Part shown: piece by piece, positions 1,273 through 29,613 of the stretch | Numbering within the stretch: the first letter of the stretch is position 1 | How the letters are laid out: every line of letters starts with the position of its first letter | Position numbers and translations under genes: made by a program | Notes under the pieces: model-generated | Database searches by the model: none | Told to the model about the DNA's origin: nothing | Seen by the model: the letters and a program-made list of their open reading frames with translations, nothing else | Assembly: GCA_041658985.1 (NCBI GenBank) | Contig: JBAZZC010000004.1 | Span: 20,221-84,220 of the forward strand | DNA from: Minisyncoccota bacterium | Lineage (GTDB): Bacteria > Patescibacteriota > Minisyncoccia > Phycocordibacterales > DATDWN01 | Direction: 5' to 3' | Length of the DNA: 64,000 nucleotides

Positions 1273-2151
1273 ATGAGTCTATCCGAAAATGGTTTAGCTA
1301 AGATCTTTAAACCAGATGACGATAAGAATCTGGGAAAACAGCGTACAGTCTATAATGTGGAAGGTCGTGAGGGTGTAGATTTTATAGTGAAAGAAAAACA
1401 GTCAGACGAAGAACTGTTAATTTTAAGATTCTTATCAGAATCTGGAATAACAGAAAGACTTCTTGCTTATGATGATAAAACTTTAGTTATTGAAAAAATA
1501 AAGGGTGAATTAATCTCAGATTATCTAAGGGGATTAATACAGAACCATTCTAAAAAGATTACTATCACCGAAAATGGAGAACCTAGTGAAGCTCACTCTA
1601 GATTTAGGATCGATTCTGTTGAACACAACTATTTACCAGAGGAAATTCTAGTAGAAGATTCTAAGATTAGAGAATTTTATGTGGATTATGTCTCTAAACT
1701 TATTTCTATGGCTCTTTTAGGAATTCACCATAATGATATTAAGTCCGACCATATTTTTTGTGAAAACGAAACAGGCAAAACTCGATTTATAGATTTTGGC
1801 CAGAGTTACACTGTAGGAGATAATCAGTACCAACCACTAGATAATTATGTCGAGTGGGGAGTTTATAATATTGCTCAAGGATTTATGCTTTTACAGCACC
1901 TAAGCCCATCCTATAGACAAATTTCTGAAAATATTCGAAGTAATAAATCTATAGAAAAATTGATAAAAGATTTATACGAACAGTTTATTGTTTTAAATAT
2001 GGATCTAAAAAGTAGGCTTATTTTTATATCTACTTGGATTCAAGGGGGTAATCTCTCGAGATTACTTATGGAGTGTTCTGTCCCGCCAGTGTTAGTTCCA
2101 GAGATTAGTTCTAGTATAGATACACTAATCTCTAAGATTCAGGCATCATAA
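1273..2151 (+). CDS. protein-kinase-like fold protein (atypical Ser/Thr kinase / Kdo-APH-like)
   Basis: Catalytic-loop-like HHNDIKSDHIF (HxDxKxxN) and DFG-like IDFGQS motifs. Family assignment is inference. Confidence 0.45.
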   Translation: MSLSENGLAKIFKPDDDKNLGKQRTVYNVEGREGVDFIVKEKQSDEELLILRFLSESGITERLLAYDDKTLVIEKIKGELISDYLRGLIQNHSKKITITENGEPSEAHSRFRIDSVEHNYLPEEILVEDSKIREFYVDYVSKLISMALLGIHHNDIKSDHIFCENETGKTRFIDFGQSYTVGDNQYQPLDNYVEWGVYNIAQGFMLLQHLSPSYRQISENIRSNKSIEKLIKDLYEQFIVLNMDLKSRLIFISTWIQGGNLSRLLMECSVPPVLVPEISSSIDTLISKIQAS

Positions 2152-2813
2152 TCGATGTCAAAACCTACTCTTGACATAAAATCGGATTCTTCAAAATCAT
2201 CTTTTTTGTTGTAATTTAATGTTTCCTCTTTGAATACATTTTTGTCTCCGAATAAATCCAACAATAAATCCTTTGTAACGATTGGTAGATTTCTTTCCTC
2301 CACATAGTCATTGTAGCTACTCCATTTATACTTTTCTGGGGATTTTACGATCCCATCCTTAACTGGATTCATGTGTATATATGCTGATGTCCACATGAGC
2401 TGAGCATCGTCTTCAATTATATTTGATTTAAATCTGTCCTGAAATAAATGTCCAACACGTTTATATTTTTTATTTATATACATCGAATAACTTATACAAA
2501 TACTGGACATTAATTTTGATAATGATTTGTCTTTACATTGTTCCACTATTAGATGAAAATGATTTGGCATTAAACAGAAAGAATGAATTTTAAAAGTGTT
2601 TATTCTACTAGGCTCTACTCTGATCCTTGAGTATGGCATGGTCAACATTTCGTTTTTCAATTCTTCCTGATTATATCCCAAAACTAAGGCAATTCTAAAA
2701 AGAAAAGCTTTATAATCTTGTTCATCAAAAAATATCCTTTCTTTGTTGTTTCCTCTGTTGTAAATATGAACAAATGATCCCTCTGCAAATTCTTTATATT
2801 TTTTATTATCCAT
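2139..2813 (-). CDS. IS200/IS605-family Y1 (HuH) transposase, REP-associated tyrosine transposase (RAYT)-like
   Basis: HuH motif FCLMPNHFHLIV and catalytic-Tyr region YIHMNPVKDGIV (Y..NPVxAGLV signature of PF01797). A perfect hairpin lies immediately 5' of the start codon. Confidence 0.8.
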   Translation of the reverse strand: MDNKKYKEFAEGSFVHIYNRGNNKERIFFDEQDYKAFLFRIALVLGYNQEELKNEMLTMPYSRIRVEPSRINTFKIHSFCLMPNHFHLIVEQCKDKSLSKLMSSICISYSMYINKKYKRVGHLFQDRFKSNIIEDDAQLMWTSAYIHMNPVKDGIVKSPEKYKWSSYNDYVEERNLPIVTKDLLLDLFGDKNVFKEETLNYNKKDDFEESDFMSRVGFDIDYDA

Positions 2814-3605: not shown

Positions 3606-4889
3606 ATGAGTACTTTTAAAATCGCAGTTACAACTATTTTTGCTATATCTTTTGTCGTTGGAATTATTCTTTTTGCTCTTTCCAAGGGTGGGTCATCTGG
3701 ACAAACAGCAAATCTTGTCATTTGGGGGACTATTCCAAGTGAAACTTTCGATGTGGCCTATCAGGGCTCATCTCTAAAGACAAATAAACTTATAAAAATA
3801 ACCTACATAAAGAAAGATAGTTCTACTTTTAACAATGATTTTATTGAGGCCCTAGCTGAAGGTGTCGGTCCAGACATTGTTTTATTGCGTGATGATTATA
3901 TATATAAAAATCGCAATAAATTATTTACTATACCCTATAAAAATTATACAGAGAGAAATTTTAGAGACACTTTCATTGAGGGCGGGGAAGTATTTTTAAA
4001 TGTTGATGGGGTGATTGCCTTGCCTTTTATGGTGGACCCCATGGTTATGTATTGGAACAGAGACTTGTTTTCAAATAATGCCGTTTCGAGTCCACCACAA
4101 TATTGGGACCAAATATATAGTCTGATAGAAAAAACCACTCGTCGTGATACGGACGCCAACATCCTTAAAAGTACTATAGCTTTAGGTGAATGGAGTAATA
4201 TAACAAATGCAAAGGAGATTATCACAATGCTTCTTCTTCAAGCCGGAACTCCCATAACCAGTCGCAACGGTCAAGAAGTTATTTCAGTTTTAAACTCAAA
4301 ATTTGATTACCCAGTTATTCCTAGTCAAAGTGCTATAAATTTTTATACTCAATTTTCCAATCCAACATCTCCATCTTATACGTGGAATCGCTCACTACCA
4401 TCATCATTTAATCTATTTCTTTCTGGTAATTTAGCAACTTATATTGGTTTTGCCAGTGAAATCTTTTCTATTCAACAAAAAAATTCAAACCTGAATTTTG
4501 ACGTAACATATGTTCCACAGATTCGTGATGCAACAAGGAAAACGGTTTTTGGACGAATGCATGCCCTAGCTATTGTCAAACAATCCAAACAAATTGCCGG
4601 TGCCTATCTAGCTGTGAATGGTTTGACAGAAGCGGTGGCCATAAAGGAGTTAGAGACTTTGACGAATTTACCTCCAGTTCGGAGAGATTTGTTGGCTGAT
4701 AAACCAACAGATACTTTTCGTACAGTCTTTTATAACTCTGCACTCATCTCTCGTCTATGGATTGACCCTGACTCTGTGGGTAGTGAAAAGGTTTTTCGTG
4801 ATATGATAGAATTAATAACAAGTGGACAAGGAAGAGTAAGTGATGCTTTGGACCAGGCAGATATTGGACTTGGGGAGCTACTCAAGTAA
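3606..4889 (+). CDS. extracellular solute-binding protein (ABC SBP family 1-like), N-terminal membrane anchor
   Basis: N-terminal TM helix. NLVIWGT and ALPFMVDPMVMYWNRDLF resemble the MalE-type SBP_bac_1 core. Confidence 0.55.
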   Translation: MSTFKIAVTTIFAISFVVGIILFALSKGGSSGQTANLVIWGTIPSETFDVAYQGSSLKTNKLIKITYIKKDSSTFNNDFIEALAEGVGPDIVLLRDDYIYKNRNKLFTIPYKNYTERNFRDTFIEGGEVFLNVDGVIALPFMVDPMVMYWNRDLFSNNAVSSPPQYWDQIYSLIEKTTRRDTDANILKSTIALGEWSNITNAKEIITMLLLQAGTPITSRNGQEVISVLNSKFDYPVIPSQSAINFYTQFSNPTSPSYTWNRSLPSSFNLFLSGNLATYIGFASEIFSIQQKNSNLNFDVTYVPQIRDATRKTVFGRMHALAIVKQSKQIAGAYLAVNGLTEAVAIKELETLTNLPPVRRDLLADKPTDTFRTVFYNSALISRLWIDPDSVGSEKVFRDMIELITSGQGRVSDALDQADIGLGELLK

Positions 4890-4943
4890 TAAATAGTCAA
4901 TAAAGTTTATAAAGTCTATAAAGTCCATAAAGTCGTAAAGTAG

Positions 4944-5363
4944 ATGCCAATACAAAATATTAAAAAAATAAGTGCGTTTGTTTGGGTGATATTTTTATTT
5001 ACTCTGATTGTTTTACCTGTTTTTACATATTCGGCACCAAGTGAATCAACCGCTGGTAATACTGGTCTCACATACGATTGTGGGGATGGTCCGACTGCTG
5101 GTAATTGTGATTTTAATGACCTAATGGCAGCGGTTAAGAATGTTGTTAATAAAGGTACAATAATTACTCTTTCTCTTTCGGTTATTGTAATAGCTTGGGC
5201 TGGCTTTAAATATATGACTTCTGGTGATAATCCTGGAGAAAGAAAGAAAGCAAATGAGATGCTTTTGAAAGTTGTATATGGTATAGCTTTTATTATCGCT
5301 GCCTGGCTTATTGTTTCTTTGATATTACGAGGTCTTAAAGTAACAACCCCAATAGCTTTTTAA
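4944..5363 (+). CDS. small secreted two-TM protein, VirB2/TrbC-like pilin candidate (paralog 1 of 6)
   Basis: Signal peptide, then helix-(short charged loop GDNPGERKKANE)-helix. Topology and W/F-G motif are shared with the five downstream paralogs. Confidence 0.5.
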   Translation: MPIQNIKKISAFVWVIFLFTLIVLPVFTYSAPSESTAGNTGLTYDCGDGPTAGNCDFNDLMAAVKNVVNKGTIITLSLSVIVIAWAGFKYMTSGDNPGERKKANEMLLKVVYGIAFIIAAWLIVSLILRGLKVTTPIAF

Positions 5364-5374
5364 ATAATAAATAT

Positions 5375-5761
5375 ATGAATATGAACATGAATATAAATAT
5401 GTTAAAAAAAATATCAATACATGTGTTGCTTATAAGTCTGTTTATTCTTCCAGTGTTTGTCTTTGCAGACAATACCTCAATCCCAATTCGTATTACTAAT
5501 CCTTTTAAAGGAGGTGACAGTCTTTCTGAACTTATTACGACAGTGTTGAATAATGTGGTTATGCCAATAGCTGCTGTGGTTGTGGTTATTTGGATTGTTT
5601 GGGCTGGTTTTACATTTGTTATGGCCCAAGGTAATCCTAAAAAAATAGAAGAAGCCCAGCAGAGACTTTTATGGTCTCTTATTGGGGCTGGAATACTACT
5701 TGGAGCAGCTGGTATATCAGCCGTGGTACAAAACACAGTAGGAGCACTTATAGCCCCATAA
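5375..5761 (+). CDS. VirB2/TrbC-like pilin candidate (paralog 2)
   Basis: Signal peptide; VIWIVWAGFTFVMAQGNPKKIEEAQQRLLWSLIGAGILL (helix-loop-helix). Confidence 0.5.
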   Translation: MNMNMNINMLKKISIHVLLISLFILPVFVFADNTSIPIRITNPFKGGDSLSELITTVLNNVVMPIAAVVVVIWIVWAGFTFVMAQGNPKKIEEAQQRLLWSLIGAGILLGAAGISAVVQNTVGALIAP

Positions 5762-5763
5762 AC

Positions 5764-6144
5764 ATGAGAAAATCATACAAAATTCAATATTTAACCTTAC
5801 CTATATTTTTATTTCCCACCTTTGCTTTTGCTGATTTTTCTCTTGGTGTTAATACTCCTAGTAAATTTGGAGATTTTATCATATATCTCAAAAGCATAAC
5901 CGACCTGCTTATTCCTATACTTTCTGCACTTGCTTTTATTGTTTTTTTCTGGGGAGTATCAAAATTTATTCTTAATTCCAACAAACCAGAGGAGATAAAA
6001 AACGGCAGAAATTACATGATGTGGGGGATTTTGGTTTTATTTATCTTACTCACCTTTAAAACCATTATTGGTTTAGTTTCAAATGATTTAGGAATTGGAA
6101 GTAAAACCCCGAATCCAAACAATATATTATTACCAACACCATAA
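5764..6144 (+). CDS. VirB2/TrbC-like pilin candidate (paralog 3). The ORF-track entry 5671..6144 is an upstream over-extension.
   Basis: ATG at 5764 directly follows the stop of the previous gene. N-terminus MRKSYKIQYLTLPIFLFPTFAFA is a signal peptide; FFWGVSKFILNSNKPEE is the loop motif. Confidence 0.5.
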   Translation: MRKSYKIQYLTLPIFLFPTFAFADFSLGVNTPSKFGDFIIYLKSITDLLIPILSALAFIVFFWGVSKFILNSNKPEEIKNGRNYMMWGILVLFILLTFKTIIGLVSNDLGIGSKTPNPNNILLPTP

Positions 6145-6170
6145 TTTATTAATAAAAATATAAAAAATAT

Positions 6171-6509
6171 ATGAAAAAAATAAAAAACAATTTAATATAT
6201 ACTTCTCTTGGGCTTCTTCTTGTCCCAAATGTTTCTTTTGCTGCGTTATCAGGAATAAAAAGCCTACTTGGTGAAATTAAAAACCTTTTGACGAACGATA
6301 TTAGAATAATAGTGGTATCGCTTGCTTTTATTTATTTCTTCTGGGGGGTTGGACAGTTCATATTACATTCAGATGACCAGAAAGCTCGTGAAGAAGGAAA
6401 ACAAAAAATGATATGGGGGGTTGTTGCTTTGTTTGTAATTACGGCTATTGGTGGTATTTTGATTGCAATAGGCCAAGGTTTTGATATTCCTGTTAACACC
6501 AACTATTAG
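6171..6509 (+). CDS. VirB2/TrbC-like pilin candidate (paralog 4)
   Basis: FIYFFWGVGQFILHSDDQKAREEGKQKMIWGVVALFVI. Confidence 0.5.
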   Translation: MKKIKNNLIYTSLGLLLVPNVSFAALSGIKSLLGEIKNLLTNDIRIIVVSLAFIYFFWGVGQFILHSDDQKAREEGKQKMIWGVVALFVITAIGGILIAIGQGFDIPVNTNY

Positions 6510-6613
6510 CAAAATCATTTAACCCCTTGATTTATCCACAGTTCTTTGTTTATTTTTGCTTTTTGTATTATAATTCGGTTATTATACGTAATTTAATAGT
6601 AATTTAACAAAAT

Positions 6614-6955
6614 ATGAAAAAAGTTATTTATGGGTTAATGTCTTTCACTCCAGTATTAGCACTGGCTGCGGGCTTTACTGGTATAGGTGATTTGGTTACA
6701 CAATTACAAGCAGTTTTGGCTAAGGTTGTGCCATTACTCTTTGCTCTAGCCATTGTTTATTTCTTCTGGGGAGTCATCAAGTTTATTCGTTCAGCTGGTG
6801 ACCCAAAAGCAGCCGCAGAGGGAAAAAGCATTATGATATACGGTATTATTGCTATTGCTGTTATGGCTTCTATTTATGGACTTATTGGTTGGTTACAGAC
6901 AACATTTAATGTTTCTGGTGGTGGTACAATTTCTCTTCCAATTCTTCCACAATAA
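6614..6955 (+). CDS. VirB2/TrbC-like pilin candidate (paralog 5)
   Basis: VYFFWGVIKFIRSAGDPKAAAEGKSIMIYGIIAIAVM. Confidence 0.5.
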   Translation: MKKVIYGLMSFTPVLALAAGFTGIGDLVTQLQAVLAKVVPLLFALAIVYFFWGVIKFIRSAGDPKAAAEGKSIMIYGIIAIAVMASIYGLIGWLQTTFNVSGGGTISLPILPQ

Positions 6956-6991
6956 GCTTGTTTGTGGTTTTGATTATAACTATCACGTAGT

Positions 6992-7267
6992 ATGACCATT
7001 ATCCCTTTTCTTAATAAGGTTAGTGATTTAATTCTGAATCCTCTTATCCTACTTGCTTTTGGTTTGGCCTTTGTTTATTTCACCTATGGTGTAGTTAAAT
7101 TTCTAAGTCTTGATGCTGGGGATAAAAGCAGAAAAGAAGCTCAAGATGCAATACTGTGGGGGTTGGTTGGAATGGTAATTATGTTTTCTGTTTATGGAAT
7201 AATAAAATTTGTTTTGGCCAGTTTTGGCATAACAGCTCCTGACAATGCTATTATATTTCTGAGATAG
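6992..7267 (+). CDS. VirB2/TrbC-like pilin candidate (paralog 6)
   Basis: FVYFTYGVVKFLSLDAGDKSRKEAQDAILWGLVGMVIM. Confidence 0.5.
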   Translation: MTIIPFLNKVSDLILNPLILLAFGLAFVYFTYGVVKFLSLDAGDKSRKEAQDAILWGLVGMVIMFSVYGIIKFVLASFGITAPDNAIIFLR

Positions 7268-7281
7268 TCCTAAGAAAAGTT

Positions 7282-7317
7282 AAACCGCGTGCCCTCCTCC
7301 AGGGGGCGCGCGGTTTT
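7282..7317. terminator. bidirectional rho-independent terminator between the pilin array (+) and the GC-rich island genes (-)
   Basis: AAACCGCGTGCCCTCCTCCAGGGGGCGCGCGGTTTTG: GC-rich imperfect hairpin with flanking A/T runs on both sides. Confidence 0.7.
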
Positions 7318-7334
7318 GCGTACAATGTACAGTC

Positions 7335-7823
7335 TTACCTCGAGAAGGTCACGATGACCGGTCTCGATGTTCCAGATTGGATTTCTATCCACGGTTGTTC
7401 GGGGATTTCAACCGTCATTCCTGGGCCGTCAACGTATGGTCGGCCGACTGGGTCCCAGATGAGAATGGGTCCTTGTGGCTTCCCCTTCATTCCGGCCAGG
7501 TAGGGGACTCGGCAACTCCGGCCCACAATGGGGGCTGTGACGACGTAGGTCCCATCTATCTCTGGAGTACAGAGGTTTACGATTGTAGCCGGTCCGGTCG
7601 ACCAGCTCCAGCACCCCCTAACCAGGAACACCGTCGTCAGGATGCCAACGCCGACGAGTACCCAATTGAGCCATCCACTTCTTCTGGTTGTCGTCGTGGC
7701 CGTGGTACTGGGTGGTAGTGGTCCAAACGGCCTTGGGCTATGGTGTTGTCGTGACTTGAAGACCTTGACAACAACCACGAGAACCAGAAGGACCGCCAGA
7801 ATCACAACAAGGGTGATAAGCAC
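7335..7823 (-). CDS. membrane protein downstream of the SPFH gene, NfeD-like partner candidate
   Basis: Two TM helices plus a C-terminal beta-rich domain. The operon position after an SPFH gene suggests NfeD-like (inference). GC-rich. Confidence 0.35.
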   Translation of the reverse strand: MLITLVVILAVLLVLVVVVKVFKSRQHHSPRPFGPLPPSTTATTTTRRSGWLNWVLVGVGILTTVFLVRGCWSWSTGPATIVNLCTPEIDGTYVVTAPIVGRSCRVPYLAGMKGKPQGPILIWDPVGRPYVDGPGMTVEIPEQPWIEIQSGTSRPVIVTFSR

Positions 7824-7825
7824 GT

Positions 7826-8893
7826 TTACCCACCCTTCTTCCCGTCAGTGGGCAGAGGGAGCGTGACTGGCACCTGCCCACCACCCGTGACGTCTACTCG
7901 TGTAGTCAGTCCGGGCTGTGCTCGTGCCGCCAGGATGCGCGAGACTTGCTCTGCGGCGATGTTCGGGTTGACCCCCTGCTGCACCAACTCCGCAACCATT
8001 CGTGAGAACTGGGCGGCGTCTGCTTCCGCAAGTCGTATCCCAGCCTCTTGTCTGGCTGTGCTTGAGATGGTTAGGGCAGTGGCTTCGGCCGTTGCTTGAG
8101 CGATCTGTCCAGCACCCTCTAGCTGAGCCATCTTCTTGGCCTCGATGGCTTGACGGGTCTTCTCGTCAGCCGGGTCCCACCGTGAGATGGAGATTCCAGT
8201 GATTCTGGTTCCGACCTGCCTGACGAGTTCCTTGTTGAGTGGGCTGTCGGGGTCTTTCAACCCGTCCAGAATCCCTTGGACTTCTCCCTTGTCGATGTTG
8301 ATGAAGTCGTCGATGGTCAAGTCGTTAATGATGTCACCAACTGCTCCCTGAACGATTCCTCCTGCGTTTCCAAAGAAGTCTCCCTTCAGGCGAATAATCG
8401 GTGTTCCCGGCGTTACGACCACAGACTTGGTTCTGACTAGGACGTTGACCGACATGCCGTCCTTGAGCTCCACCTTCCACATGAGGTACGAACGGGGGAA
8501 GGTCTTTCGAAGGGTGTCCGTCCACTCCACGCCGAGATCGATGATCCACTTTTCGGCGGGAGCTTGATCATCCGGGTTTTCTTTTTCCCTGTGAATCGGA
8601 AACTTCAAGACAGACGAGATGCCAGGGATTCCTACCCACCACAAGCCGAGATGCTTGTTGAGGAAGGATTTCTCTTGGTTTCCGTCGACGAACAACCCAG
8701 AGTCGGTTTCTCCGTTGTCGTCGAGGTGTTCTCCACGCGCGTCGTGGATGATTTGTGCGAGGGACTCTCCCACCATCCTGAACTTAATGTTGTCCGTCTG
8801 GATACGGGTTAGCATACCCAGTTGGACGAGGAGAATGATCCCGACCACGGCAATTGCTAGGGTCAGGATCACAGACAGCAAAAAAGTAACCAC
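7826..8893 (-). CDS. SPFH/band-7 (stomatin/prohibitin/flotillin-like) domain membrane protein
   Basis: N-terminal TM, then an SPFH-like core (IINDLTIDDFINIDKGEVQG...) and an Ala/Gln-rich coiled-coil tail. Markedly GC-rich relative to its surroundings. Confidence 0.7.
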   Translation of the reverse strand: MVTFLLSVILTLAIAVVGIILLVQLGMLTRIQTDNIKFRMVGESLAQIIHDARGEHLDDNGETDSGLFVDGNQEKSFLNKHLGLWWVGIPGISSVLKFPIHREKENPDDQAPAEKWIIDLGVEWTDTLRKTFPRSYLMWKVELKDGMSVNVLVRTKSVVVTPGTPIIRLKGDFFGNAGGIVQGAVGDIINDLTIDDFINIDKGEVQGILDGLKDPDSPLNKELVRQVGTRITGISISRWDPADEKTRQAIEAKKMAQLEGAGQIAQATAEATALTISSTARQEAGIRLAEADAAQFSRMVAELVQQGVNPNIAAEQVSRILAARAQPGLTTRVDVTGGGQVPVTLPLPTDGKKGG

Positions 8894-9051
8894 TGTTCAC
8901 GCTCCTTATCGTCTTGTCTTCCAATCTAGAATTTCAAAGAACTCCCTCGGAACACCCGAAAGTAGTCCTTTTGGTCCTGAACGGATTTTATCATATAAAT
9001 ATGTAAAAGTCAATATAAAAACGGCCCAGTATGGAGTTGTTTTTGATGTTG

Positions 9052-9133
9052 TGAGTGCGAGAGGATTTGAACCTCCAAGAGTTACCTCATACGCTCCTGA
9101 AGCGTACGCGTATACCAATTCCGCCACGCACTC
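9052..9133 (-). tRNA. tRNA-Leu(CAG), type II with long variable arm
   Basis: Cloverleaf traced by hand. Acceptor GAGTGCG/CGCACTC, anticodon loop TTCAGGA, T-loop GGTTCAAATCC. Confidence 0.8.
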
Positions 9134-13642: not shown

Positions 13643-13777
13643 ATCCGCACACTAAATTTAGTATCGTTGCCTAGTGTTTTATCTAGATATTATTTATTAG
13701 TTATGTAATCGAGATAATATTTAGTGACAAATATTTAAAAGGCAACAAAAACACAATACTAAAATTAGTGTGTGGAT
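13643..13777. mobile_element. family A miniature TIR element, between the cysteine desulfurase gene and 13780
   Basis: ATCCGCACACTAAATTTAGTAT vs reverse complement of ATACTAAAATTAGTGTGTGGAT (22 bp, 2-3 mismatches). The right end GTGTGTGGATAAATG abuts the start codon of 13780. Confidence 0.55.
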
Positions 13778-13779
13778 AA

Positions 13780-14734: not shown

Positions 14735-17410
14735 ATGCCACCATTTGGTCATTTTACAACAAAAGCAAAAGAAGCTATCCGAAAAGCCCATGAGCTGGCT
14801 ATTGAACGTGGTCAAAATCACGTTAACTCCCTCCACCTTTTAACTGCTCTTATTTTACAAGAAGAGGGAATTGTCACTTCAATATTAGATAAGTTACAAA
14901 TTGATACAATTCTTTTGACGGACTCTCTTATAGAAGCCATAGAAGGTGCTGATGTCGGACAAACCATTTCTGCTTCATATCAAGTTTATCTTACACCAGA
15001 TTTAGCTTCTGTTATTGAAGCTTCCGTTAAACAAACCCCAGCTCTTCATGATGATTTCGTTTCAACCGAGCATCTTTTTCTAGCCTTAATTGAAGTTCCT
15101 GGTCCTGCCAGGGATTTACTCATAAAATTTAAAATAGAAAAAGATTCAGTTCTTCGTCTTATTGAAGAAATAAGAAATACAAAAACTGCTGATACGGAGA
15201 CACCAAAGAAATTTAAGTCACTTTCAAAATACACAAGAAATCTAACAAAACTTGCTGGGATGAATAAATTAGACCCAGTTATTGGAAGAGAAGATGAAAT
15301 TTCCCGTATCATCCAGATTCTTTCCCGTCGAACAAAAAATAATCCAATCTTAATAGGTGAAGCTGGAGTAGGAAAGACAGCTATAGCTGAAGGTTTGGCC
15401 ATTAGAATATCTATGGGAGAAGTACCGGAGTCTCTCAGAGATAAAGAATTGGTTTCTCTTGATTTAGGTCTTTTAGTGGCAGGAACAAAATATCGTGGGG
15501 AATTTGAAGAAAGGTTAAAAAATATTTTGAAAGAAATAGAAAAATCGGATGGCAAAATCATTTTGTTTGTTGATGAGATACATACAATTGTCGGGGCTGG
15601 TTCGGCCGAGGGGTCATTAGACGCATCAAATATGTTAAAACCAGCTTTAGCACGCGGGGAGTTACGAGCCATTGGAGCAACCACCCTTAAAGAATATCAA
15701 AAACATATTGAAAAAGACCCAGCTCTCTCAAGACGATTTCAACCAGTCTATGTTAATGAACCAGGTATAGAAGATGCTATTACTATTCTTCGAGGATTGA
15801 AGGAAAAATATGAACTTTATCACGGGGTTCGTATAACTGATGAGGCCATAGTCGCTGCTGTTAATCTTTCTAGCAGGTATATTACTGATAGGTTTTTACC
15901 AGATAAGGCTGTTGACCTTATCGATGAATCTGCTTCATATTTAAAAATTGCCTTAGAAAATAAACCAGTAGTGCTTCAGAATGCACATTCGAAAATTATA
16001 AAGCTTCAGATTGAACACGAAGCATTAAAAAAGGAGACAGACATGAAATCAAAGACCCGCTTAAAAGAAATAGAGAAAATTATTGCTGACTTAAAAGAAG
16101 AAACAAGCGAGATTGAATTAAAATGGAACAATGAAAAAGAAACAGTCAATGATATAAAGGCAATCAAAAAACAACTTGAAGAGCTTCGTCGTGAAGCAGA
16201 GATTGCAGAAGCCAAATCTGACCTCTCTTTAGCTGCAGAAATACGGTATGGCAAAATTCCAGCTCTGGAAAAAGATCTAGACAACAAATCAAAGAGATTA
16301 AAAAAACTTCAAAGTTCTCGAAGAATTCTGAAAGAAGAAATTACTGAAAATGATATCGCTACGATTGTGTCAAAGTGGACTGGTATTCCAGTGACAAGAA
16401 TGCTTGAAGAAGAAGCGGATAAATTAAATCGCATGGAAGACGTTTTACAAAAAACAATCGTAGGTCAAAAAGAGGCCGTTCAAAAAATATCCGACACAAT
16501 CAAAAGGAGTCGTGCTGGTATAGCTGACCCTCAGAGACCAATTGGCTCTTTTCTATTCTTGGGTCCAACTGGTGTAGGTAAAACTGAACTGACAAAATCT
16601 TTGGCTCAATTTATGTTTAATGATGAAAAAGCTCTGATTCGTATTGATATGTCTGAGTTTATGGAGAAACACAGTGTCTCAAAAATACTTGGTGCTCCTC
16701 CGGGATATGTTGGACATGAAGAAGGCGGAACAATAACTGAAATGGTACGTCATAGACCATATTCTGTCATATTATTTGATGAAATTGAGAAAGCTCATCC
16801 GGAAGTGTTTAATGTTTTGCTTCAGATTTTAGATAACGGGCGACTGACCGATGCTAAGGGTAGAGTGGTTAATTTTAGAAATACTGTGATTATTCTAACC
16901 TCAAATATTGGTTCGCAGTATATAGATAAAATGGAAAAAATTGGTTTTGCTTTTGAAAAAAGTGAAAAGGCAAGTTACGAGGAAGCTAAATCAAGAGTGA
17001 TGGATGCCTTGAAGGATCATTTTCGACCAGAGTTCCTTAATCGTTTGGATGACGTTATTGTTTTTGATATTTTAAGTCGTGACGCTATCGCTGAAATCGT
17101 AAAAATCCAAGTAGAAATTGTCACAGAAAGATTGGCTCAAAAAGAAATCAGACTAATACTTTCTCCAGCCGTATTGGAACATCTAGCAAAAGAAGGATAC
17201 AGCCCACAATATGGCGCTAGACCATTAAAGCGTCTAATACAGACAAAAATTTTAACACCAATAGCTTCTTTCATGGTTAGTAAAAAAATATCGAAAGGGG
17301 GTTCTATTTCTGTTGATATGAAGGGTACCGAGCTTGTCTTTAGTGTAAAAAAAGGTAAACATGATTCGTTTGTCTCACCGACCTTTGTTAATGATGGTAT
17401 CTTGGCATAG
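14735..17410 (+). CDS. clpB: ATP-dependent chaperone ClpB (two AAA+ modules with long middle coiled-coil)
   Basis: Clp_N repeats. Walker [16 protein letters not shown] and [15 protein letters not shown]. Long M-domain coiled coil around nt 15990-16330. Confidence 0.95.
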
Positions 17411-18991
17411 AATGATTTCTTGTGATAAAGTAATCTGGTTAATAGTATATGCGCCGGTCGGATAGCGGCTATTCCAGGGGACTGTAAATCCCCGGTCCAT
17501 AGGACATCGTTGGTTCGAGTCCAACCCGGCGCACCACGTAGGAAAAGTCAAAGAGTTTTGGTTCGCCTCGCTTCGCTCGGCGACTAATTTGTATTCAATT
17601 TTGGGGGTAAAAACGAATTCCCGATTTCGCAAAATATGGTTCGAGCCGATGTTTTTCAGAAATGTTGGCAATTCGGAAAGATTATTCTCTCCAACCAATT
17701 TCGCGGCTTGATTTAAGGACTTTACGAACTCACGAGCCGGTTCGAGCCAAGACAACCCTTTTTCCTCAAAGTCGGTTATTTTCTCTATTAAAGATATTTT
17801 CTGAGATAACAGACTTTGTTTTTTGGCGGCGTATTCCTCTGTGGATAAGGCGTCCGCTAAATAGATGTCTAACAATTTTTGGAGTTTTGCCTCAACCTGT
17901 GTTACTTGCTCTTTCAAAACGCTGATTTCACTTTGTGCGTCCTCTCTCGCTTTATCCTGTTCGCTATCCAACGCCGCCAAAACTTTCTCGGTGTCTTGGC
18001 TCGACAAAGAAACTTTTTGAAGATAAGAAGTGATTTGTTCGGTTAGTGCTTCTTCTCGGAGATAATGCTTTTCTTGGCAAGGGCCTTTCTTGTGAGTACA
18101 GCGATAATAGTTATGACCCTTTTGTCTTTCGGCAGTGATTGAACAATCGCACGAAGCGCATTTGAGAAGGCCAAGAAAAGCAAAATTATTTTTGTGAGAT
18201 TCCTGTACTTTGCCACGCTTGCTCATCACTTCTTGGCAAGTATCAAAAAGTTTCTTTGAAATTAACGGCTCGTGTTGTCCCTCAAAAATTTCCCCCTTCC
18301 ATTTCATTAGTCCAAGGTAAAAGACGTTTTGTAGATTTTTTTGAATGTTTGCGATAACAAGTGGTTTTCCGAGATTACCACGCAAATCGTGTTCCTTACA
18401 CCAATTTGCGAGAGAGTGAAGCGTAAATGCTCCGGTGGCGTACATTTCAAACAACCTCTTAACTTTCGGCGCTTTCTCGCTATCAATATCAATACCGCGA
18501 GTCTTTGGGTTATTGGTGTAGCCCACCGGAGCCCAGCCGGGCCAAACGCCGTTTCTGATTTTCTGTCGTAGTCCTCGCTTCACATTCTCTCGCAAATTAT
18601 CTACAAAATATTTTGATTGACCAAAAGCAATATTGAGCATGAATAATCCCTGTGGTGTAGGCTCAAACCAGAAGGTGGGAAATTTTAGAGAACGAATCAA
18701 ACCGCGATCTACAAAATGGATAATCTTTCCGCCGTCCACACTATTTCTTGCTAATCTATCGGGGTGCCAAGAAATAATCCCATCTGCTTTTCCTGATTCA
18801 AGAATTGCCAACATTTCTGCGAATTTAATTCGCCCGGGTTCTTTTGCGGTTTTGGCTTCCTGAAAGGAAGCGACAATTTCAAGTTTTTCTTTGGCGGCAT
18901 ACTCTTGCAACTCTACGAGTTGCGCTTCAATACTTAAAACCTGTCGGTCATCTTCTTCAGTAGATTTTCTTGCGTAAAGTATGTATTTCAT
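17375..18991 (-). CDS. large serine recombinase (resolvase/invertase catalytic domain + recombinase domain + zinc ribbon). The C-terminal ~95 codons of the ORF run through IR1 and the tRNA-Tyr antisense and may not be genuine.
   Basis: N-terminal [19 protein letters not shown] (serine recombinase catalytic Ser motif), a ...R...GR... region, and zinc-ribbon CASCDCS...YYRC. Start ATG at 18991. The 3' end of the ORF overlaps IR1-L (17531-17631) and the tRNA. Confidence 0.85.
17451..17536 (+). tRNA. tRNA-Tyr(GTA), type II (copy 1)
   Basis: Acceptor GCGCCGG/CCGGCGC, anticodon stem GGGGA with loop CTGTAAA, long variable arm, T-loop GGTTCGAGTCC, encoded CCA. Its last 6 nt begin IR1. Confidence 0.85.
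17531..17631. repeat. IR1-L: 101-bp perfect inverted repeat (partner 19035-19135), beginning inside the 3' end of tRNA-Tyr
   Basis: Compared base-by-base: 17531-17631 equals the reverse complement of 19035-19135 (101/101). Confidence 0.9.
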
Positions 18992-19007
18992 AAGTTTTAG
19001 AAATTAA

Positions 19008-19035
19008 GGATTAAAAAATTTTCTTCCCCCAAAAT
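19008..19035. repeat. IR3-L: 28-bp perfect inverted repeat (partner 19280-19307), located between the recombinase start codon and IR1-R
   Basis: GGATTAAAAAATTTTCTTCCCCCAAAAT vs reverse complement at 19280-19307. Confidence 0.85.
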
Positions 19036-19135
19036 GCGAAATCGGGAATTCGTTTTTACCCCCAAAATTGAATACAAATTAGTCGCCGAGCGAAGCGAGG
19101 CGAACCAAAACTCTTTGACTTTTCCTACGTGGTGC
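19035..19135. repeat. IR1-R: inverted partner of 17531-17631
   Basis: See IR1-L. Confidence 0.9.
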
Positions 19136-19227
19136 AGTATCCTTGAATTAGTCCGAACGCATTTCGCCGCCTGCGGCGGCGAGGAAGTCCCCCCGCAAAA
19201 ATTCGGAAAGGCGGCGGAGCCGCACCG
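19132..19227. repeat. IR2-L: 96-bp perfect inverted repeat (partner 20132-20227). Overlaps the end of IR1-R by 4 nt.
   Basis: 19132-19227 equals the reverse complement of 20132-20227. Confidence 0.9.
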
Positions 19228-19527
19228 ATCAAAACCGTAAAAGAACCCGGAGAAAAACATCGGCGCGAACCATATTTTAATTTTGGGGGAAGAAAATTTT
19301 TTAATCCATTCAGAACCCTCTAAAATGGCCCCAAATAAGGGCTTTTTTGATTGTTTCGATATGGCTTGACAGAAAGGTTTGGATATGCTATACTTAATGC
19401 AGTAAATTGAAGTAAGTTCTTTATCATTTTTGGTCAGCTTTCTTGCGACACAATAGCTTAGAAACCTTGTTTTTCTTAGTTGCTGTGTCGCAAGAATCCA
19501 ACAACCCACAACCCAAAGGAGACTGAC

Positions 19528-20004
19528 ATGATGACGACGCAACCGCGACTGACCAAGGGGCTGTTCGGGCACGAGTTTCGCTCTGCCAGCACCCTGTTCG
19601 GCATCCGGTGTGGACAGTGTCGCGGTCGCGACTTCGTTCACAACGGCGGCTGGTACAACAGGGACGGCGAGAAACTCGGCTGGGGCGATCTCGCACCGGC
19701 GGACTTCCTGAAGATCTCCAACGAGTTGGAGGATGGTGAGCTCTTCATCATTCTCTACGAGTCGGACTCTTTCTGGAACTTCGTCACCCGCCCGGGCATC
19801 ATCGGCAGCATGGCCGCCGTGAAGCCCGACGTGGAGGCGCCCGGCGTCGACTTCGTAGCGGAGAAATGCTGCTACATCGTCGCCAAGCACCGACTCTACT
19901 ACGTCGACCGGAACGGCTACTCGAAAGAGAAGACGTTCGATCGAGACGGGTTGCAGTTCACGGTGCTGACGCCCGAAGCCGCGAAGCAGCTCATCGCTTC
20001 GTAG
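19528..20004 (+). CDS. hypothetical GC-rich protein carried between the IR2 copies
   Basis: TTGACA-17-TATACT promoter at 19366-19394. 11-bp-stem hairpin in the leader at 19442-19494. SD AAGGAG 8 nt before ATGATG (MMTTQPRL...). No recognisable family. Confidence 0.45.
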   Translation: MMTTQPRLTKGLFGHEFRSASTLFGIRCGQCRGRDFVHNGGWYNRDGEKLGWGDLAPADFLKISNELEDGELFIILYESDSFWNFVTRPGIIGSMAAVKPDVEAPGVDFVAEKCCYIVAKHRLYYVDRNGYSKEKTFDRDGLQFTVLTPEAAKQLIAS

Positions 20005-20131
20005 CTCCGCCCGCCGCCAACCCAAACCAAGTTCGCCACCTCTTGATAAAAGGTGGCTTTCTTTTTGTCTGATTTTTTGATAAAATAAATTCATAATTGA
20101 ATGCCGCCAAAGAAAAACTTGAAATTGTCAG

Positions 20132-20227
20132 CGGTGCGGCTCCGCCGCCTTTCCGAATTTTTGCGGGGGGACTTCCTCGCCGCCGCAGGCGGCGAAATGC
20201 GTTCGGACTAATTCAAGGATACTGCAC
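20132..20227. repeat. IR2-R: inverted partner of 19132-19227. It is immediately preceded (20101-20129) by a 29-bp inverted copy of recombinase-gene codons 31-40 (18872-18900).
   Basis: Direct comparison; see findings. Confidence 0.9.
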
Positions 20228-20348
20228 AAATAACTCCTGCAAGGGAGTTTTTGTATTTTATAAGATTGCACTTGAGTTATATTTATGATATATAAGTAAA
20301 TAGAGTGACGAGTTTAGTAGTAACCAAGTCGTCAAGGGGAAATCACAT

Positions 20349-21620
20349 ATGTCAACAATCCACGAAGAGTTAAAGGCCCGGGGCTTTGTCCAGCAGGAAA
20401 CTGCACCGGTGCAGGTCTTTCATCCAACAACTCACGAGTTGCTGGAGACTTTGTCGCTGAAGAATCTACTCAACAATAGTAGGATTACCTACTATGTCGG
20501 TTTTGACCCGACAGCGGACAGTTTGCACATCGGCCATCTTTTGCCGATCATGGCCATGACTCATCTGCAGAGAGCCGGCCACACGCCGATCGCTATCATT
20601 GGTGGCGGGACCACTATGATTGGTGACCCGAGTGGTAAGACTGAGACAAGGCAAATGCTCTCGAAAGAGGTCATTGCCTCAAACGGACAACGGCTTTTGG
20701 CACAGCTGAAACACTACCTTGACTTCGGTCAGGGCAAGGGATTGTTCGTTAACAATGCTGAGTGGCTTTTGCCACTTAACTACATTGAATTTCTCCGCGA
20801 CATCGGGAAACACTTCCGTGTCAACGAGATGGTTCGTACAACGGCGTACGCAGAACGACTTGCACGTGAGGAAGGATTGTCCTTCATCGAGTTCAACTAC
20901 CAACTGCTTCAAGCGTACGACTTTCTCGTTCTGTACGAAAAGTACGGATGCACGGTGCAGATGGGGGGGGACGACCAGTGGAGTAACATCCTTGCCGGAA
21001 TTGACCTCATCCGGAAGGTCAAACAAGGAAACGCCCACGCCTTGACATTCCCGCTTCTTACCACGGCGAGTGGCAAGAAGATGGGAAAGACCGAATCGGG
21101 GGCCGTTTGGCTTGATTCGGCCAAGACCTCACCCTACGAGTACTACCAGTACTGGATTAACACCGAGGACGGAGATGTTGAAAAGTTCCTGAAACTCTTC
21201 ACCTTTCTGCCCTTGGAGAAAATCACGGAACTGTGTGCTCGTGGAGGTCAACACCTCCGTACCGCCAAAGAAGCCCTTGCCTTTGAGACGACGAAGATCA
21301 CCCATGGCGAGGTAGAGGCAATCAAGGCCCAGAATGTTTCAAGGGAGTTGTTCAGTGGTAAGGGGAGTGAAGCATCTCACCTTCCGAGCACGGCCATCTC
21401 CCAGACCGAAGTGGACAAACTCCGACTCGTTGAAGTTCTTGTTAGGGTGGGCTTAAGCTCTTCAAAGACCGAGGCGGGGAAGCTCATCACTAGTGGTGGG
21501 GTCTATGCCAATGGTGAGAGGGTAATCGACGCCAAAGTCATGCTGTCCGAACTTCTCGTGGACGGCACAGTTCTTTTGCGGAAGGGACAGAAAACCTTTC
21601 ACAAAGTAGTCGTTGGGTAA
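20349..21620 (+). CDS. tyrS: tyrosine--tRNA ligase
   Basis: Class I HIGH motif (DPTADSLHIGHLLPIMAM) and KMSKS-type KMGKT. C-terminal S4-like domain. GC-richer than surrounding AT-rich genes. Confidence 0.95.
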   Translation: MSTIHEELKARGFVQQETAPVQVFHPTTHELLETLSLKNLLNNSRITYYVGFDPTADSLHIGHLLPIMAMTHLQRAGHTPIAIIGGGTTMIGDPSGKTETRQMLSKEVIASNGQRLLAQLKHYLDFGQGKGLFVNNAEWLLPLNYIEFLRDIGKHFRVNEMVRTTAYAERLAREEGLSFIEFNYQLLQAYDFLVLYEKYGCTVQMGGDDQWSNILAGIDLIRKVKQGNAHALTFPLLTTASGKKMGKTESGAVWLDSAKTSPYEYYQYWINTEDGDVEKFLKLFTFLPLEKITELCARGGQHLRTAKEALAFETTKITHGEVEAIKAQNVSRELFSGKGSEASHLPSTAISQTEVDKLRLVEVLVRVGLSSSKTEAGKLITSGGVYANGERVIDAKVMLSELLVDGTVLLRKGQKTFHKVVVG

Positions 21621-21626
21621 CGAAGT

Positions 21627-21712
21627 GGGTAGGTGCCCGAGCGGTCAAAGGGGACTGTCTGTAAAACAGTTGGCCTAGGCCTACAGAGGTTCAAATCCTC
21701 TCCTACCCACCA
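21627..21712 (+). tRNA. tRNA-Tyr(GTA), type II (copy 2), 6 nt after the tyrS stop
   Basis: Acceptor GGGTAGG/CCTACCC, anticodon stem ACTGT with loop CTGTAAA, long variable arm GGCCTAGGCC, T-loop GGTTCAAATCC, encoded CCA. Confidence 0.85.
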
Positions 21713-21750
21713 ACTTCCAAAGACTACTAACGAAGTAAGTCTCGAGGACG

Positions 21751-21795
21751 GGAGGACAGAATCATCGCGCGAGCGATGGGGATGTCCTCCTTTTT
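21751..21795 (+). terminator. rho-independent terminator after tRNA-Tyr copy 2
   Basis: GGAGGACA ... TGTCCTCC stem followed by TTTTT. Confidence 0.6.
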
Positions 21796-21908
21796 AGTAA
21801 AAATATTTAATACACCTTATTTATATATGATTGTTAGATGTTATAATCTTTCTGTATATTAATAGTTCAACAATCTCTTAGATATTATCAAAACAAAAGA
21901 GAATTACT

Positions 21909-22517
21909 ATGAAAAAGAAAATGTTTATTCTTGACATTGCTACCTTTGGACATGAAGCGGCTCTTATGTTTATACAAAGACAAGGATGGTTATTGAAAGA
22001 TGTCGAGATTGTTTTTTGTGGGTCACACGGGAGTCTACTTGAACGTTTTGTCACAGAACCATTCTCCTATGCAACTGTACCACTCCGAAACTCTTCCGCT
22101 GGTGAGTATACGGAGGTAACAATTCCTCTTGCAAAATTTCGAGGGGAGGGACATAAACTACTAGAACGAGATCAATTTGATCTCCCAATCAATCTTTTTC
22201 TTCTAGTTTCTCCTAGTGTTAATCAAGTCGATGAACTTGAATGTGTTATGTCACATGAGAAAGCGCTCAAAGAGTGTGGTCAATATCTTGATTCTATCGG
22301 CATTACACAGGATAAGCGCTCAGAGGTTAAGTCAACCGGCGAGTCTGCAAGACTTGTGTCTGAACTCGGCCTTGGTGCATTAGTGGGGGCTGTTGCACCA
22401 AAGATAGCCACCAAGGTTTATAATCTCAAAGTTTTAGCTGAAAACATTCAAGACGACCCGAACAACAAGACCATATTTGTACTTCTCCAGAACCAATTGA
22501 CTATGAAACTAAAATAG
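21909..22517 (+). CDS. prephenate dehydratase (PDT) domain protein, without ACT domain
   Basis: SHEKALKECGQYL (PDT sHpQAlaQC signature) and GALVGAVAPKIATKVYNLKVLAENIQDDPNNKTIFVLL (AAIas...yGL.iL...IqD..nN.TRF). Confidence 0.65.
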   Translation: MKKKMFILDIATFGHEAALMFIQRQGWLLKDVEIVFCGSHGSLLERFVTEPFSYATVPLRNSSAGEYTEVTIPLAKFRGEGHKLLERDQFDLPINLFLLVSPSVNQVDELECVMSHEKALKECGQYLDSIGITQDKRSEVKSTGESARLVSELGLGALVGAVAPKIATKVYNLKVLAENIQDDPNNKTIFVLLQNQLTMKLK

Positions 22518-22572
22518 AATAAGCTCTAAATAGAGCCGAAACCCTCGGCCAAGAACCAGACAGGAGTGTATT

Positions 22573-23136
22573 ATGAAACTGGCGGTACTGTTAGCTGGTC
22601 TACCTGGGTCGGGTAAGACAACGATCTGTCGGCACATGGCTGAAATGCCCAAGGTGTGTCATGTTGATGTTGACCACTATAAGAGGCACAGAGCTGATCC
22701 AAAGAAAGTGACAAAAGAAGTGGACTCGCCGGAACTCCGACTGCTCTACTGTCGGGATGCTCTGAACGAGGCCTTCTGTCACTTTGATGCTGGGGCATCG
22801 GCTGTTGTGATGGATGAAGTATATCCCTACCACTCAGTTCGTGCTCAATTGGAAGCGCTCTGTGCGGAAAGGCAAGTGCAAGTGTTGTGGGTTGAGGTAC
22901 GGTCCTTGTGTGGTACGGCGGTGAAACGTCTTTCTACACCAAGACCAGGACACCTCCTCACACCAGAGTGTGCCGCGGAGATTCACCGCATGTGTGCGGC
23001 TATCTTCGAGGCGTTTCCTGCCGGTTGTCAGAATCACGTCATTATCAACAACGAAGATGGTGCCGACATCAATCGGTTGGTGACTGGTCTCATGGGGGTT
23101 GTCAACAAAAACCCTCAAGTCATCAGTTGTGGCTAG
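22573..23136 (+). CDS. P-loop NTPase/kinase (AAA_33 / zeta-toxin-like small kinase), GC-rich
   Basis: Walker A GLPGSGKTT near the N-terminus, ~185 aa. SD CAGGAG upstream. Confidence 0.55.
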   Translation: MKLAVLLAGLPGSGKTTICRHMAEMPKVCHVDVDHYKRHRADPKKVTKEVDSPELRLLYCRDALNEAFCHFDAGASAVVMDEVYPYHSVRAQLEALCAERQVQVLWVEVRSLCGTAVKRLSTPRPGHLLTPECAAEIHRMCAAIFEAFPAGCQNHVIINNEDGADINRLVTGLMGVVNKNPQVISCG

Positions 23137-28948: not shown

Positions 28949-29035
28949 GCCGAGGTGATGAAATTGGTATACATGCGACACTCAAAATGTCGTGGGCGCA
29001 AGTCCGTGAGGGTTCAAGTCCCTCCCTCGGCACCA
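28949..29035 (+). tRNA. tRNA-Leu(CAA), type II
   Basis: Acceptor GCCGAGG/CCTCGGC, anticodon stem CGACA with loop CTCAAAA, long variable arm, T-loop GGTTCAAGTCC, encoded CCA. Confidence 0.8.
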
Positions 29036-29613
29036 TGCTAAAAAGAGTAAGTAGTGATAAAAAGCTACATGCTTATATTGTTGGTTTGGTTCTCGGTGAC
29101 GGAAATTTGTCTAATCCAAATGGTCGTGCAGTGAGACTTAGAATCACTTGTGACAAAAAGTATCCTGAACTTCACCGATATATTCTTTCTTCTTTGCAAA
29201 AATTTTTGCCAGACAACAAGGTCTTTATATCTTACCGTAAAAATTGTTTAGATGTAACATGCTACTCAAATATGTTAGAAAAATTGCTTGGCTGGAAAGC
29301 AAAAGGTGGTTCAAAGTATGCTCAAATGGTTGAGATTCCAAAATGGATTTTGAGAAATAAAATATATACAAAAGAATGTCTAAGAGGAATTATTCAGACA
29401 GATGGTTCTATTTATAAAGACAGAGGTTATTTAATGGTAAATATCACTAGCAGTATCCCTTCTCTTGCTGAAAGTGTTGTTTTAGGAATAAAAAGTATTG
29501 GTTATAAACCAAATATACAACCCCATCAAGATCCTAGAAAAATTAAATACACAATAAGAATTTCAAAAAACACTCAAAAGTTTATTGATGACATTGGGGT
29601 GTGGAAAAGATAG
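29036..29613 (+). CDS. LAGLIDADG homing endonuclease (two-motif), starting at the first nt after tRNA-Leu(CAA)
   Basis: Motifs YIVGLVLGDGNLS and LRGIIQTDGSIY. ATG at 29036 directly abuts the tRNA CCA end. The ORF-track entry 28987.. is an upstream extension through the tRNA. Confidence 0.7.

Follow-up and report, generated by a model that had tools for sequence, protein, structure and literature searches.

Six tandem pilin-like PF18895 genes in a Paceibacteria-type genome: an apparently old set of distinct subunits beside a solute-binding-protein-like gene

When several small genes of one family stand in a row and share little sequence identity, are they spare copies kept for variation or distinct parts of one structure? 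We asked this of a locus in a 64,000-nucleotide stretch of a Minisyncoccota bacterium genome (assembly GCA_041658985.1, contig JBAZZC010000004.1, positions 20,221 to 84,220 of the forward strand), which was analysed as a whole and is hereafter called the window. In the window, six consecutive small open reading frames (ORFs), all on the plus strand, span positions 4944–7267. Their coordinates and strand bear out the tandem array given in a preliminary description, which had read them as diversifying VirB2/TrbC-like pilin paralogues. Comparison with related genomes points instead to six old subunits, each tied to its place in the array, that are probably used by a type IV secretion system (T4SS). 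These genes, here called P1 to P6, are as follows, with their scores against PF18895:

4944–5363, plus strand: P1, 139 aa, with a signal peptide and, in its mature N-terminus, an insert carrying two cysteines; 39.1 bits.
5375–5761, plus strand: P2, 128 aa (alternative starts at 5381 and 5399), the most TrbC/VirB2-like copy; 35.3 bits.
5764–6144, plus strand: P3, 126 aa, counted from the signal-like start MRKSYK at 5764 (the mechanical ORF runs from 5671); 29.4 bits.
6171–6509, plus strand: P4, 112 aa, the fastest-evolving copy; 37.4 bits.
6614–6955, plus strand: P5, 113 aa, the most constrained copy and candidate major subunit; 36.3 bits.
6992–7267, plus strand: P6, 91 aa, a paralogue that lacks a signal peptide; 26.6 bits, equal to the cut-off.

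To which family do these proteins belong? All six reach the gathering score of PF18895 (T4SS_pilin; cut-off 26.6 bits), with scores of 26.6–39.1 bits, and this amounts to a family match far beyond chance. Against PF04956 (TrbC/VirB2; cut-off 27.9 bits), P2 passes at 30.9 bits, P1 (20.6 bits) and P4 (12.6 bits) stay below, and P3, P5 and P6 give no match. These hidden Markov model searches are in agreement with the VirB2/TrbC-type assignment made earlier, and a check of the non-pilin alternative named with it, a holin or other phage family, returned no match for the array proteins in PHROGs. The NCBI annotation likewise labels P1 "pilin", P2 "TrbC/VirB2 family protein" and the gene upstream of the array "extracellular solute-binding protein". 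At the level of sequence, membership of PF18895 is thus established; homology to canonical VirB2 is remote, and plausible.

A hydropathy scan found an N-terminal signal-like segment followed by two hydrophobic helices in P1, P2, P4 and P5. The corresponding segment of P3, MRKSYKIQYLTLPIFLFPTFAFA, is weaker and falls under the threshold of the scan, and P6 contains two hydrophobic segments only, with no leader. The motifs FFWGV, VWAGF and FTYGV are present in the array proteins, as is a charged loop. Of the shared architecture proposed earlier, the two helices, the motifs and the loop therefore stand, but a signal peptide in all six does not, since the last gene encodes two helices without a leader. 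The AlphaFold2 model of P5 (mean pLDDT 76.5) comprises a signal helix and two long helices (residues 24–59 and 64–97). The hallmark of PF18895, a small protein with a leader and a two-helix hydrophobic hairpin, is accordingly found here with the exception of P6, which is leaderless in all genomes. The start of P2 calls for a comment: a hexamer repeat, (ATGAAY)n at 5373–5401 (detected with Tandem Repeats Finder, TRF), encodes MNMNMNINM at the 5' end of the gene and offers three in-frame ATGs, and public records give P2 as 128, 126 and 120 aa. Copy-number polymorphism of the repeat was considered and rejected: another assembly is 100% identical over 15.8 kb, so that these differences in length reflect the choice of start codon.

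We then compared the locus with its relatives. The independent assembly just mentioned (ENA ERZ27249449:k141_935943, a contig of 86,289 bp) is identical to the window DNA, and the nearest related loci come from metagenome-assembled genomes of Zambryskibacteria and other Paceibacteria (Parcubacteria). We collected 31 related Paceibacteria loci, and database proteins gave 711 hits for the pilin-like family. Following the suggestion that array copy number be compared across relatives, we searched these loci with a profile of the six window proteins and counted 4–7 tandem genes on one strand in each, mostly six; the number varies between lineages, with duplications among positions 3–5. The chromosomal site is constant in the 31 loci, in the order gyrA, a methyltransferase gene, the solute-binding-protein (SBP)-like gene, the array and rbfA-infB. 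The neighbourhood upstream comprises pth, S1, a metallo-beta-lactamase (MBL)-fold gene, gyrA, the methyltransferase gene and the SBP-like gene. Downstream lie two GC-rich genes (in closer relatives), followed by tRNAs, rbfA, infB, DUF4446, a cysteine desulfurase, a protease and ClpB.

Are the copies interchangeable? For each gene in the 18 loci that have six, we identified the best match in another locus, and in 1557 of 1836 cases this match occupied the same array position: always for positions 1 and 2, in 87–91% of cases for positions 5 and 6, and in 65% for positions 3 and 4. Mean identity in these loci was 42–51% at the same position compared with about 30% between positions, and P1–P6 themselves share pairwise identities of 16–33%. 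Each of the window genes also has its best match at the same position in other arrays; P3, for example, finds position 3 in the relatives L002–L017. Furthermore, positions carry signatures of their own. At least two cysteines occur in an extended mature N-terminus at position 1 (14 of 14 loci), cysteine is never present in position 5 orthologues, and every position 6 orthologue begins with M(L)TI(I/V)PFLN and has no leader.

Rates of evolution were estimated as gene-wide dN/dS against L033, a close relative. The gyrA, methyltransferase and SBP-like genes gave values of about 0.04 (0.038 for the SBP-like gene), and P5, which is 96.5% identical between the two genomes, gave 0.044, equal to gyrA and the SBP-like gene. 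P6 reached 0.17 and P1–P4 0.12–0.23 (P1, 0.18; P4, 0.23 with 78.5% identity), so that P1–P4 evolve 3–6 times faster than the flanking genes. Within orthogroups, the helices and the loop are 50–80% conserved and the exposed termini 15–61% (15–42% in P1–P5), the exceptions to this poor conservation being the C-terminal tail of P2 (51%) and the N-terminus of P6 (61%). No near-identical segments or recombination repeats were found. Positional orthology, position-specific signatures and low dN/dS together do not make the picture that recently diversifying copies or switchable cassettes would give. The idea of diversifying paralogues or surface variation is thus not supported, in view of a fixed gene order, of positional orthology in at least 18 six-gene loci, of the signatures and of dN/dS values of 0.04–0.23; the marks of an antigenic-variation cassette, namely recent or recombining copies, positive selection and independent switching, are not those of this array. 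Judged from sequence comparison, the array appears to consist of six ancient, sub-functionalised subunits under purifying selection, with faster-evolving exposed ends.

How might such a set be expressed? P1–P4 lie 2–26 nt apart in the window and are similarly tightly spaced in relatives. The gap before P5 measures 76–121 nt and is conserved across loci; in the window, it contains the following two elements:

6532–6540, plus strand: the 9-mer TTATCCACA, identical to the DnaA-box consensus and separated by 5 nt from the -35 element downstream of it.
6546–6574, plus strand: a predicted sigma-70-type internal promoter for P5–P6, with TTGTTT (6546–6551), a 17-nt spacer and TATAAT (6569–6574).

In an alignment of this gap from 15 loci, TATCCACA is invariant. 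The TTG of the -35 element is conserved and the -10 element, TAnAAT, has five invariant positions, reading TATAAT in 14 of the 15. A consensus scan had missed this promoter because its -35 element matches at just three of six positions. Throughout the aligned loci, the 9-mer TTATCCACA ends 5–6 nt before the -35 element, so that both its sequence and its distance are fixed. An exact copy occupies this site in 19 loci, for 13 of which it is the sole copy in the locus. The core ATCCACA precedes the P5-like gene in 28 of 34 loci, and more distant loci, including one from Wolfebacteria, show a one-mismatch form with this core in the same place. P5–P6 are thus preceded by what we predict to be a conserved internal promoter with a DnaA-box-like 9-mer. 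TTATCCACA corresponds to the DnaA-box consensus established in E. coli and B. subtilis, and is a putative DnaA box in CPR (Candidate Phyla Radiation) bacteria. In the window as a whole there are five exact copies, where 0.64 are expected. The four others all lie on the minus strand (13771–13779, 17840–17848, 43508–43516 and 61657–61665) and are not conserved in relatives; the first of them abuts the start codon, at 13780, of a gene for a trypsin-like protease.

The array ends at a strong hairpin:

7282–7316: hairpin whose GC-rich stem of 15 bp (-32.1 kcal/mol, z = -4.4) is preceded by an A-run and followed by a T-run.

L033 has the identical stem-loop, and in nearly all related loci the last pilin gene is followed by a comparable GC-rich hairpin, likewise flanked by A- and T-runs but differing in sequence. 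A simple terminator scan did not flag the hairpin at 7282–7316. Its flanking A- and T-runs and its conservation in relatives uphold the closing bidirectional terminator of the preliminary description, and we predict it to be an intrinsic terminator shared with the convergent gene at 7335–7823 (minus strand). Together, gap, promoter and terminator outline a unit that reads SBP-P1-P2-P3-P4, then the DnaA-box-like motif and promoter, P5-P6 and the terminator.

The first gene of this unit, and the repeat that separates it from P1, are:

3606–4889, plus strand: membrane-anchored SBP-like gene, 427 aa, PF13416 (SBP_bac_8) at 51.6 bits; the conserved first gene of the operon.
4895–4941, plus strand: 9-bp tandem repeat ATAAAGTCN within the spacer between the SBP-like gene and P1 (TRF period 9, 4.4–5.4 copies).

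The SBP-like protein has an N-terminal membrane anchor and distant MalE-like matches in the PDB, and its gene stands directly upstream of the array in 24 loci. In most loci, either 1–11 nt separate its stop codon from the start of P1 or the two genes overlap by 4 nt; of the 27 loci for which a gap could be measured, 20 have one of at most 6 nt or an overlap. No ABC importer permease was found among the scanned ORFs of the window or among the conserved and larger unclustered ORFs flanking related arrays. The repeat itself exists, as TRF confirms, and is identical in the independent assembly. The preliminary description had counted it as part of the system, and in this it is not supported: the 54-nt spacer made of 9-bp repeats occurs in this genome only. 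In L002 the gap is 2 nt and the repeat is absent, and in L033, the SBP protein of which is 96% identical, the gap holds 86 nt of unrelated sequence with a single ATAAAGTA at its end before the ATG. Since these closest relatives are without it, we rejected the repeat as a regulatory feature of the system; it looks like a local expansion of a few bases before the start codon.

What would the six proteins do? The explanation that we favour, and hold to be rather likely, is a chromosomal operon of Zambryskibacteria-like Paceibacteria in which six ancient PF18895 paralogues contribute to a pilus-like or channel structure built by a VirB4-type T4SS. P1–P5 would be exported through Sec and lose their leaders, leaving helical hairpins in the membrane with both ends outside, and P6 would insert without a leader. 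P5, possibly together with P6, may be the major building block, in view of its housekeeping-level constraint and its own promoter. P1–P4 would have a minor or accessory part and be produced along with the SBP-like protein; evolution is fastest in their exposed segments at the N- and C-termini. At the contact with a host cell, the subunits would then be assembled by a T4SS of the VirB4 type, the genes for which would lie elsewhere in the genome. By analogy, the assembly step may have a precedent in the six-gene array of Southlakia epibionticum, which is essential for epibiotic growth.

Some evidence from related genomes is consistent with this proposal. Table S1 of PMC12102498 gives as VirB4-positive two relatives that have the orthologous array, L004 (Zambryskibacteria RIFOXYD1_FULL_40_13) and L022 (Parcubacteria Athens0714_16). 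The same study reports VirB2-like pilins in 1,948 VirB4-containing Patescibacteria assemblies, with the pilins near virB4 in 1,135 of them. Among the genes of unknown function in cultured Paceibacterales, those for T4SS pilins rank with the most highly expressed, and a pilin pair, PMX.50_00607/00608, has been described there (PMC10936435). In addition, five of the six genes gave sub-threshold matches to NCBIfam NF045849, a pilin-like family of Mycoplasma integrative and conjugative elements (ICEs), with E-values of 7e-10 to 2e-4 and scores of 20.9–38.5 bits, all below the 40-bit cut-off of the model.

A number of observations weigh against a T4SS pilus. Genes for VirB4, VirB6, VirD4, PrgI or a relaxase are absent from the 64-kb window, and in the 31 loci the neighbours up to 10 kb from the array, both the conserved ones and the larger unclustered ones, yielded no T4SS gene. 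A family-profile search of PDB sequences retrieved no solved pilin. Foldseek, run with the P5 model against the PDB, returned generic helical hairpins only (best E-value 0.68), a short hairpin being a weak query. Alignment with hhalign to an Agrobacterium-type profile of eight annotated plasmid VirB2/TrbC proteins gave probabilities of 3.7% for the family and 2.0% for the P2 orthologues, neither of them significant; the P2 alignment, itself not significant, is collinear over 58 columns and covers the whole hairpin. T4SSs of monoderm bacteria normally have no pilins. According to a 2025 review, no other monoderm T4SS than that of CPR bacteria has pilins, and none of the CPR systems has been seen to form a pilus. 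Leader cleavage was judged by eye and hydropathy only, and both the division into major and minor subunits and the binding of DnaA at TTATCCACA are steps that we infer.

Could the six copies nonetheless be variation cassettes, alternative pilins whose exchange or differential expression would serve antigenic variation or a switch of host range, as is also suggested in PMC12102498 by analogy with the VirB2 paralogues of Bartonella and Anaplasma? Their identity within the array is low (16–33%), P1–P4 outpace the flanking genes 3–6 times, the exposed termini are the most variable parts, and copy number ranges from 4 to 7 between lineages through duplications among positions 3–5. Yet the copies are old, sit at fixed positions with one-to-one orthologues across genomes, and retain features such as the two cysteines of P1 and the leaderless P6, with gene-wide dN/dS far below 1. 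P1–P4 are moreover so closely spaced (2–26 nt) that they are probably co-transcribed and thus not independently switched, and no recombination repeats were found, the repeats that are present being confined to this genome or artefacts of start-codon choice. We accordingly consider variation cassettes quite improbable. Less credible still, to the point of being negligible, is the idea that an AT-rich spacer contains open frames due to chance, or the remnants of decay: nothing more than small ORF size speaks for it, and it is refuted by six of six genes passing a curated cut-off, by ORFs intact in 31 loci with 711 database matches, and by dN/dS well below 1.

The strongest competitor to a T4SS-assembled pilus or channel, though in our view unlikely, is a membrane complex that is not a pilus: a hetero-oligomer of six times two, or 12, helices that would work with the SBP-like protein, for example in the uptake of host-derived compounds, either independently of a T4SS or as a membrane-embedded part of one. 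An orphan SBP gene that abuts or overlaps P1 in most loci would fit such a complex, as would the finding of neither an ABC importer permease nor a T4SS gene among the scanned ORFs of the window and flanks. That the six conserved paralogues form a fixed set points to a defined stoichiometry, ICEs of wall-less Mycoplasma are the source of the nearest NCBIfam model, and similarity to canonical VirB2 is not significant. On the other hand, P2 passes the TrbC/VirB2 model, S. epibionticum has the same family inside a T4SS cluster without an SBP, leaders that can be cleaved, along with exposed termini that vary, are in keeping with subunits that are secreted or assembled, and the separate and probably stronger promoter of P5–P6 argues for unequal stoichiometry. 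A more elaborate proposal, which we regard as improbable and put only slightly ahead of variation cassettes, would make the SBP-like protein and the six hairpin paralogues a surface apparatus specific to Paceibacteria. It would be a heteromeric filament or channel with the SBP at its base or tip, serving the uptake of host molecules, with synthesis of P5 and P6 gated by DnaA to the replication cycle and perhaps without any T4SS cluster nearby.

VirB2-like pilin arrays in CPR bacteria are already known, and the locus adds no new kind of system. Among the closest counterparts is SEML1_0014–0019 of Southlakia epibionticum ML1 (Saccharimonadia), the six genes essential for epibiotic growth (Wang et al. 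2023, PMC10633639). There, too, six tandem, same-strand and sequence-divergent PF18895 genes occur in a CPR bacterium, encoding proteins of 100–185 aa, some of which touch PF04956. Unlike the present array, that of ML1 is situated close to the replication origin, adjoins T4SS genes (VirB4, PrgI and a VirB6-like gene), from which it diverges, and lacks an SBP gene; here the array is coupled to an SBP-like gene, and no T4SS gene occurs in the window or within 10 kb in relatives. A survey of 383 Patescibacteria assemblies described 441 arrays of 2–11 VirB2-like pilin genes, most abundant in Microgenomatia and Saccharimonadia, and took them to be variation that may serve adaptation to the host (Quinonero-Coronel et al. 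2025, PMC12102498). The locus falls under the array definition of that study and agrees with its arrays in Pfam families, tandem layout and low identity (about 25% on average there, 16–33% here). In contrast to that interpretation, the array analysed here is a Paceibacteria array in which orthology is fixed by position and selection is purifying. PMC12102498 makes no mention of SBP coupling or of the promoter motif, and positional orthology, SBP coupling, the internal promoter with its DnaA-box-like motif and the leaderless sixth gene were not found in the pilin-array literature that we consulted; these are what the locus contributes.

With Agrobacterium VirB2, RP4 TrbC and F TraA, the array proteins share a leader and, after it, a hydrophobic hairpin that consists of two helices and a short polar loop, and P2 passes PF04956; those canonical pilin genes, unlike the array genes, are single-copy, lie beside virB1 and virB3-virB4 and belong to diderm bacteria. 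Several VirB2-like genes in a row are also found in the T4SSs of Bartonella and Anaplasma, where the paralogues are thought to serve antigenic variation (as cited in PMC12102498), whereas the evidence here points to old, fixed and co-expressed subunits. Members of NF045849, the Mbov_0395 family, are likewise small two-helix proteins, from a monoderm conjugation system, and among NCBIfam models theirs matches five of the six genes best, but they are encoded by single-copy genes on a mobile element, whereas the array is chromosomal and stands among housekeeping genes. Finally, the operons for major and minor subunits of type IV pili offer an analogy, not a homology, in that one conserved and likely strongly expressed subunit with its own promoter is accompanied by faster-evolving co-transcribed paralogues. 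Fold and machinery are unrelated to those of type IV pili, and neither a class III signal peptide nor a PilD site is present here.

The role of T4SSs and their unusual pilin arrays is an open question in CPR bacteria (Patescibacteria), where such an array is essential in the one species tested genetically. The Paceibacteria array would add a deeply conserved set of six distinct subunits rather than a variation device, physically apart from any genes of a T4SS, coupled to a solute-binding-like gene that is itself an orphan, and with a conserved internal promoter that bears a DnaA-box-like motif. It thereby offers handles on stoichiometry, regulation and a possible link to uptake that could be tested in those Paceibacteria that can, since recently, be cultivated.

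Several features of the surroundings deserve mention. Two genes convergent to the array form an island at 7335–8893 (minus strand), which extends up to tRNA-Leu(cag) at 9051–9133 and encodes a 162-aa Pro/Thr-rich membrane protein with no family match and a 355-aa SPFH/Band_7-like protein. The island has 56% GC, and its GC content at third codon positions (GC3) is 0.61–0.66 compared with 0.20–0.31 in all neighbouring genes. Both gene families occupy the same place in about 16 related loci and are GC-rich there as well (41–59% compared with 33–39%); for the first island gene, dS against L033 is 1.33, with flanking genes at about 0.5. An assembly chimera behind the GC jump at 7.3 kb was considered and rejected, since the junction is also present in the independent assembly and in relatives. 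The island is a conserved compositional anomaly. Several relatives also carry a 214-aa ORF family (cluster C16) near the tRNA cluster downstream of the array.

Upstream, between gyrA and the methyltransferase gene, the segment 1273–2813 holds a 292-aa ORF that weakly matches a protein kinase, together with an IS200/Y1 transposase gene (2139–2813, minus strand), both missing from this place in most relatives. In two more distant Paceibacteria, L024 (19486–20261) and L025 (20007–20279), the edge of the fetched locus, about 9.5 kb downstream of the array, holds one more PF18895-domain gene, which is longer. It encodes at least 258 aa with a Cys-rich N-terminus like that of P1, and might mark the start of a T4SS cluster there; one of the two genomes is a complete 617-kb chromosome.

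Farther along the window, a second GC-rich block (17375–23136, 47–51% GC) is bracketed by two copies of tRNA-Tyr(gta), at 17451–17536 and 21627–21712. Its genes comprise a large serine recombinase (17375–18991, minus strand), an unknown 365-aa ORF, tyrS (GC3 0.62), a prephenate dehydratase and a small kinase-like ATPase, and the block looks like an element integrated at tRNA-Tyr with a tyrosyl-tRNA synthetase of its own. Finally, an ORF resembling LAGLIDADG-type homing endonucleases (28987–29613) starts inside or directly after tRNA-Leu(caa) at 28949–29035.

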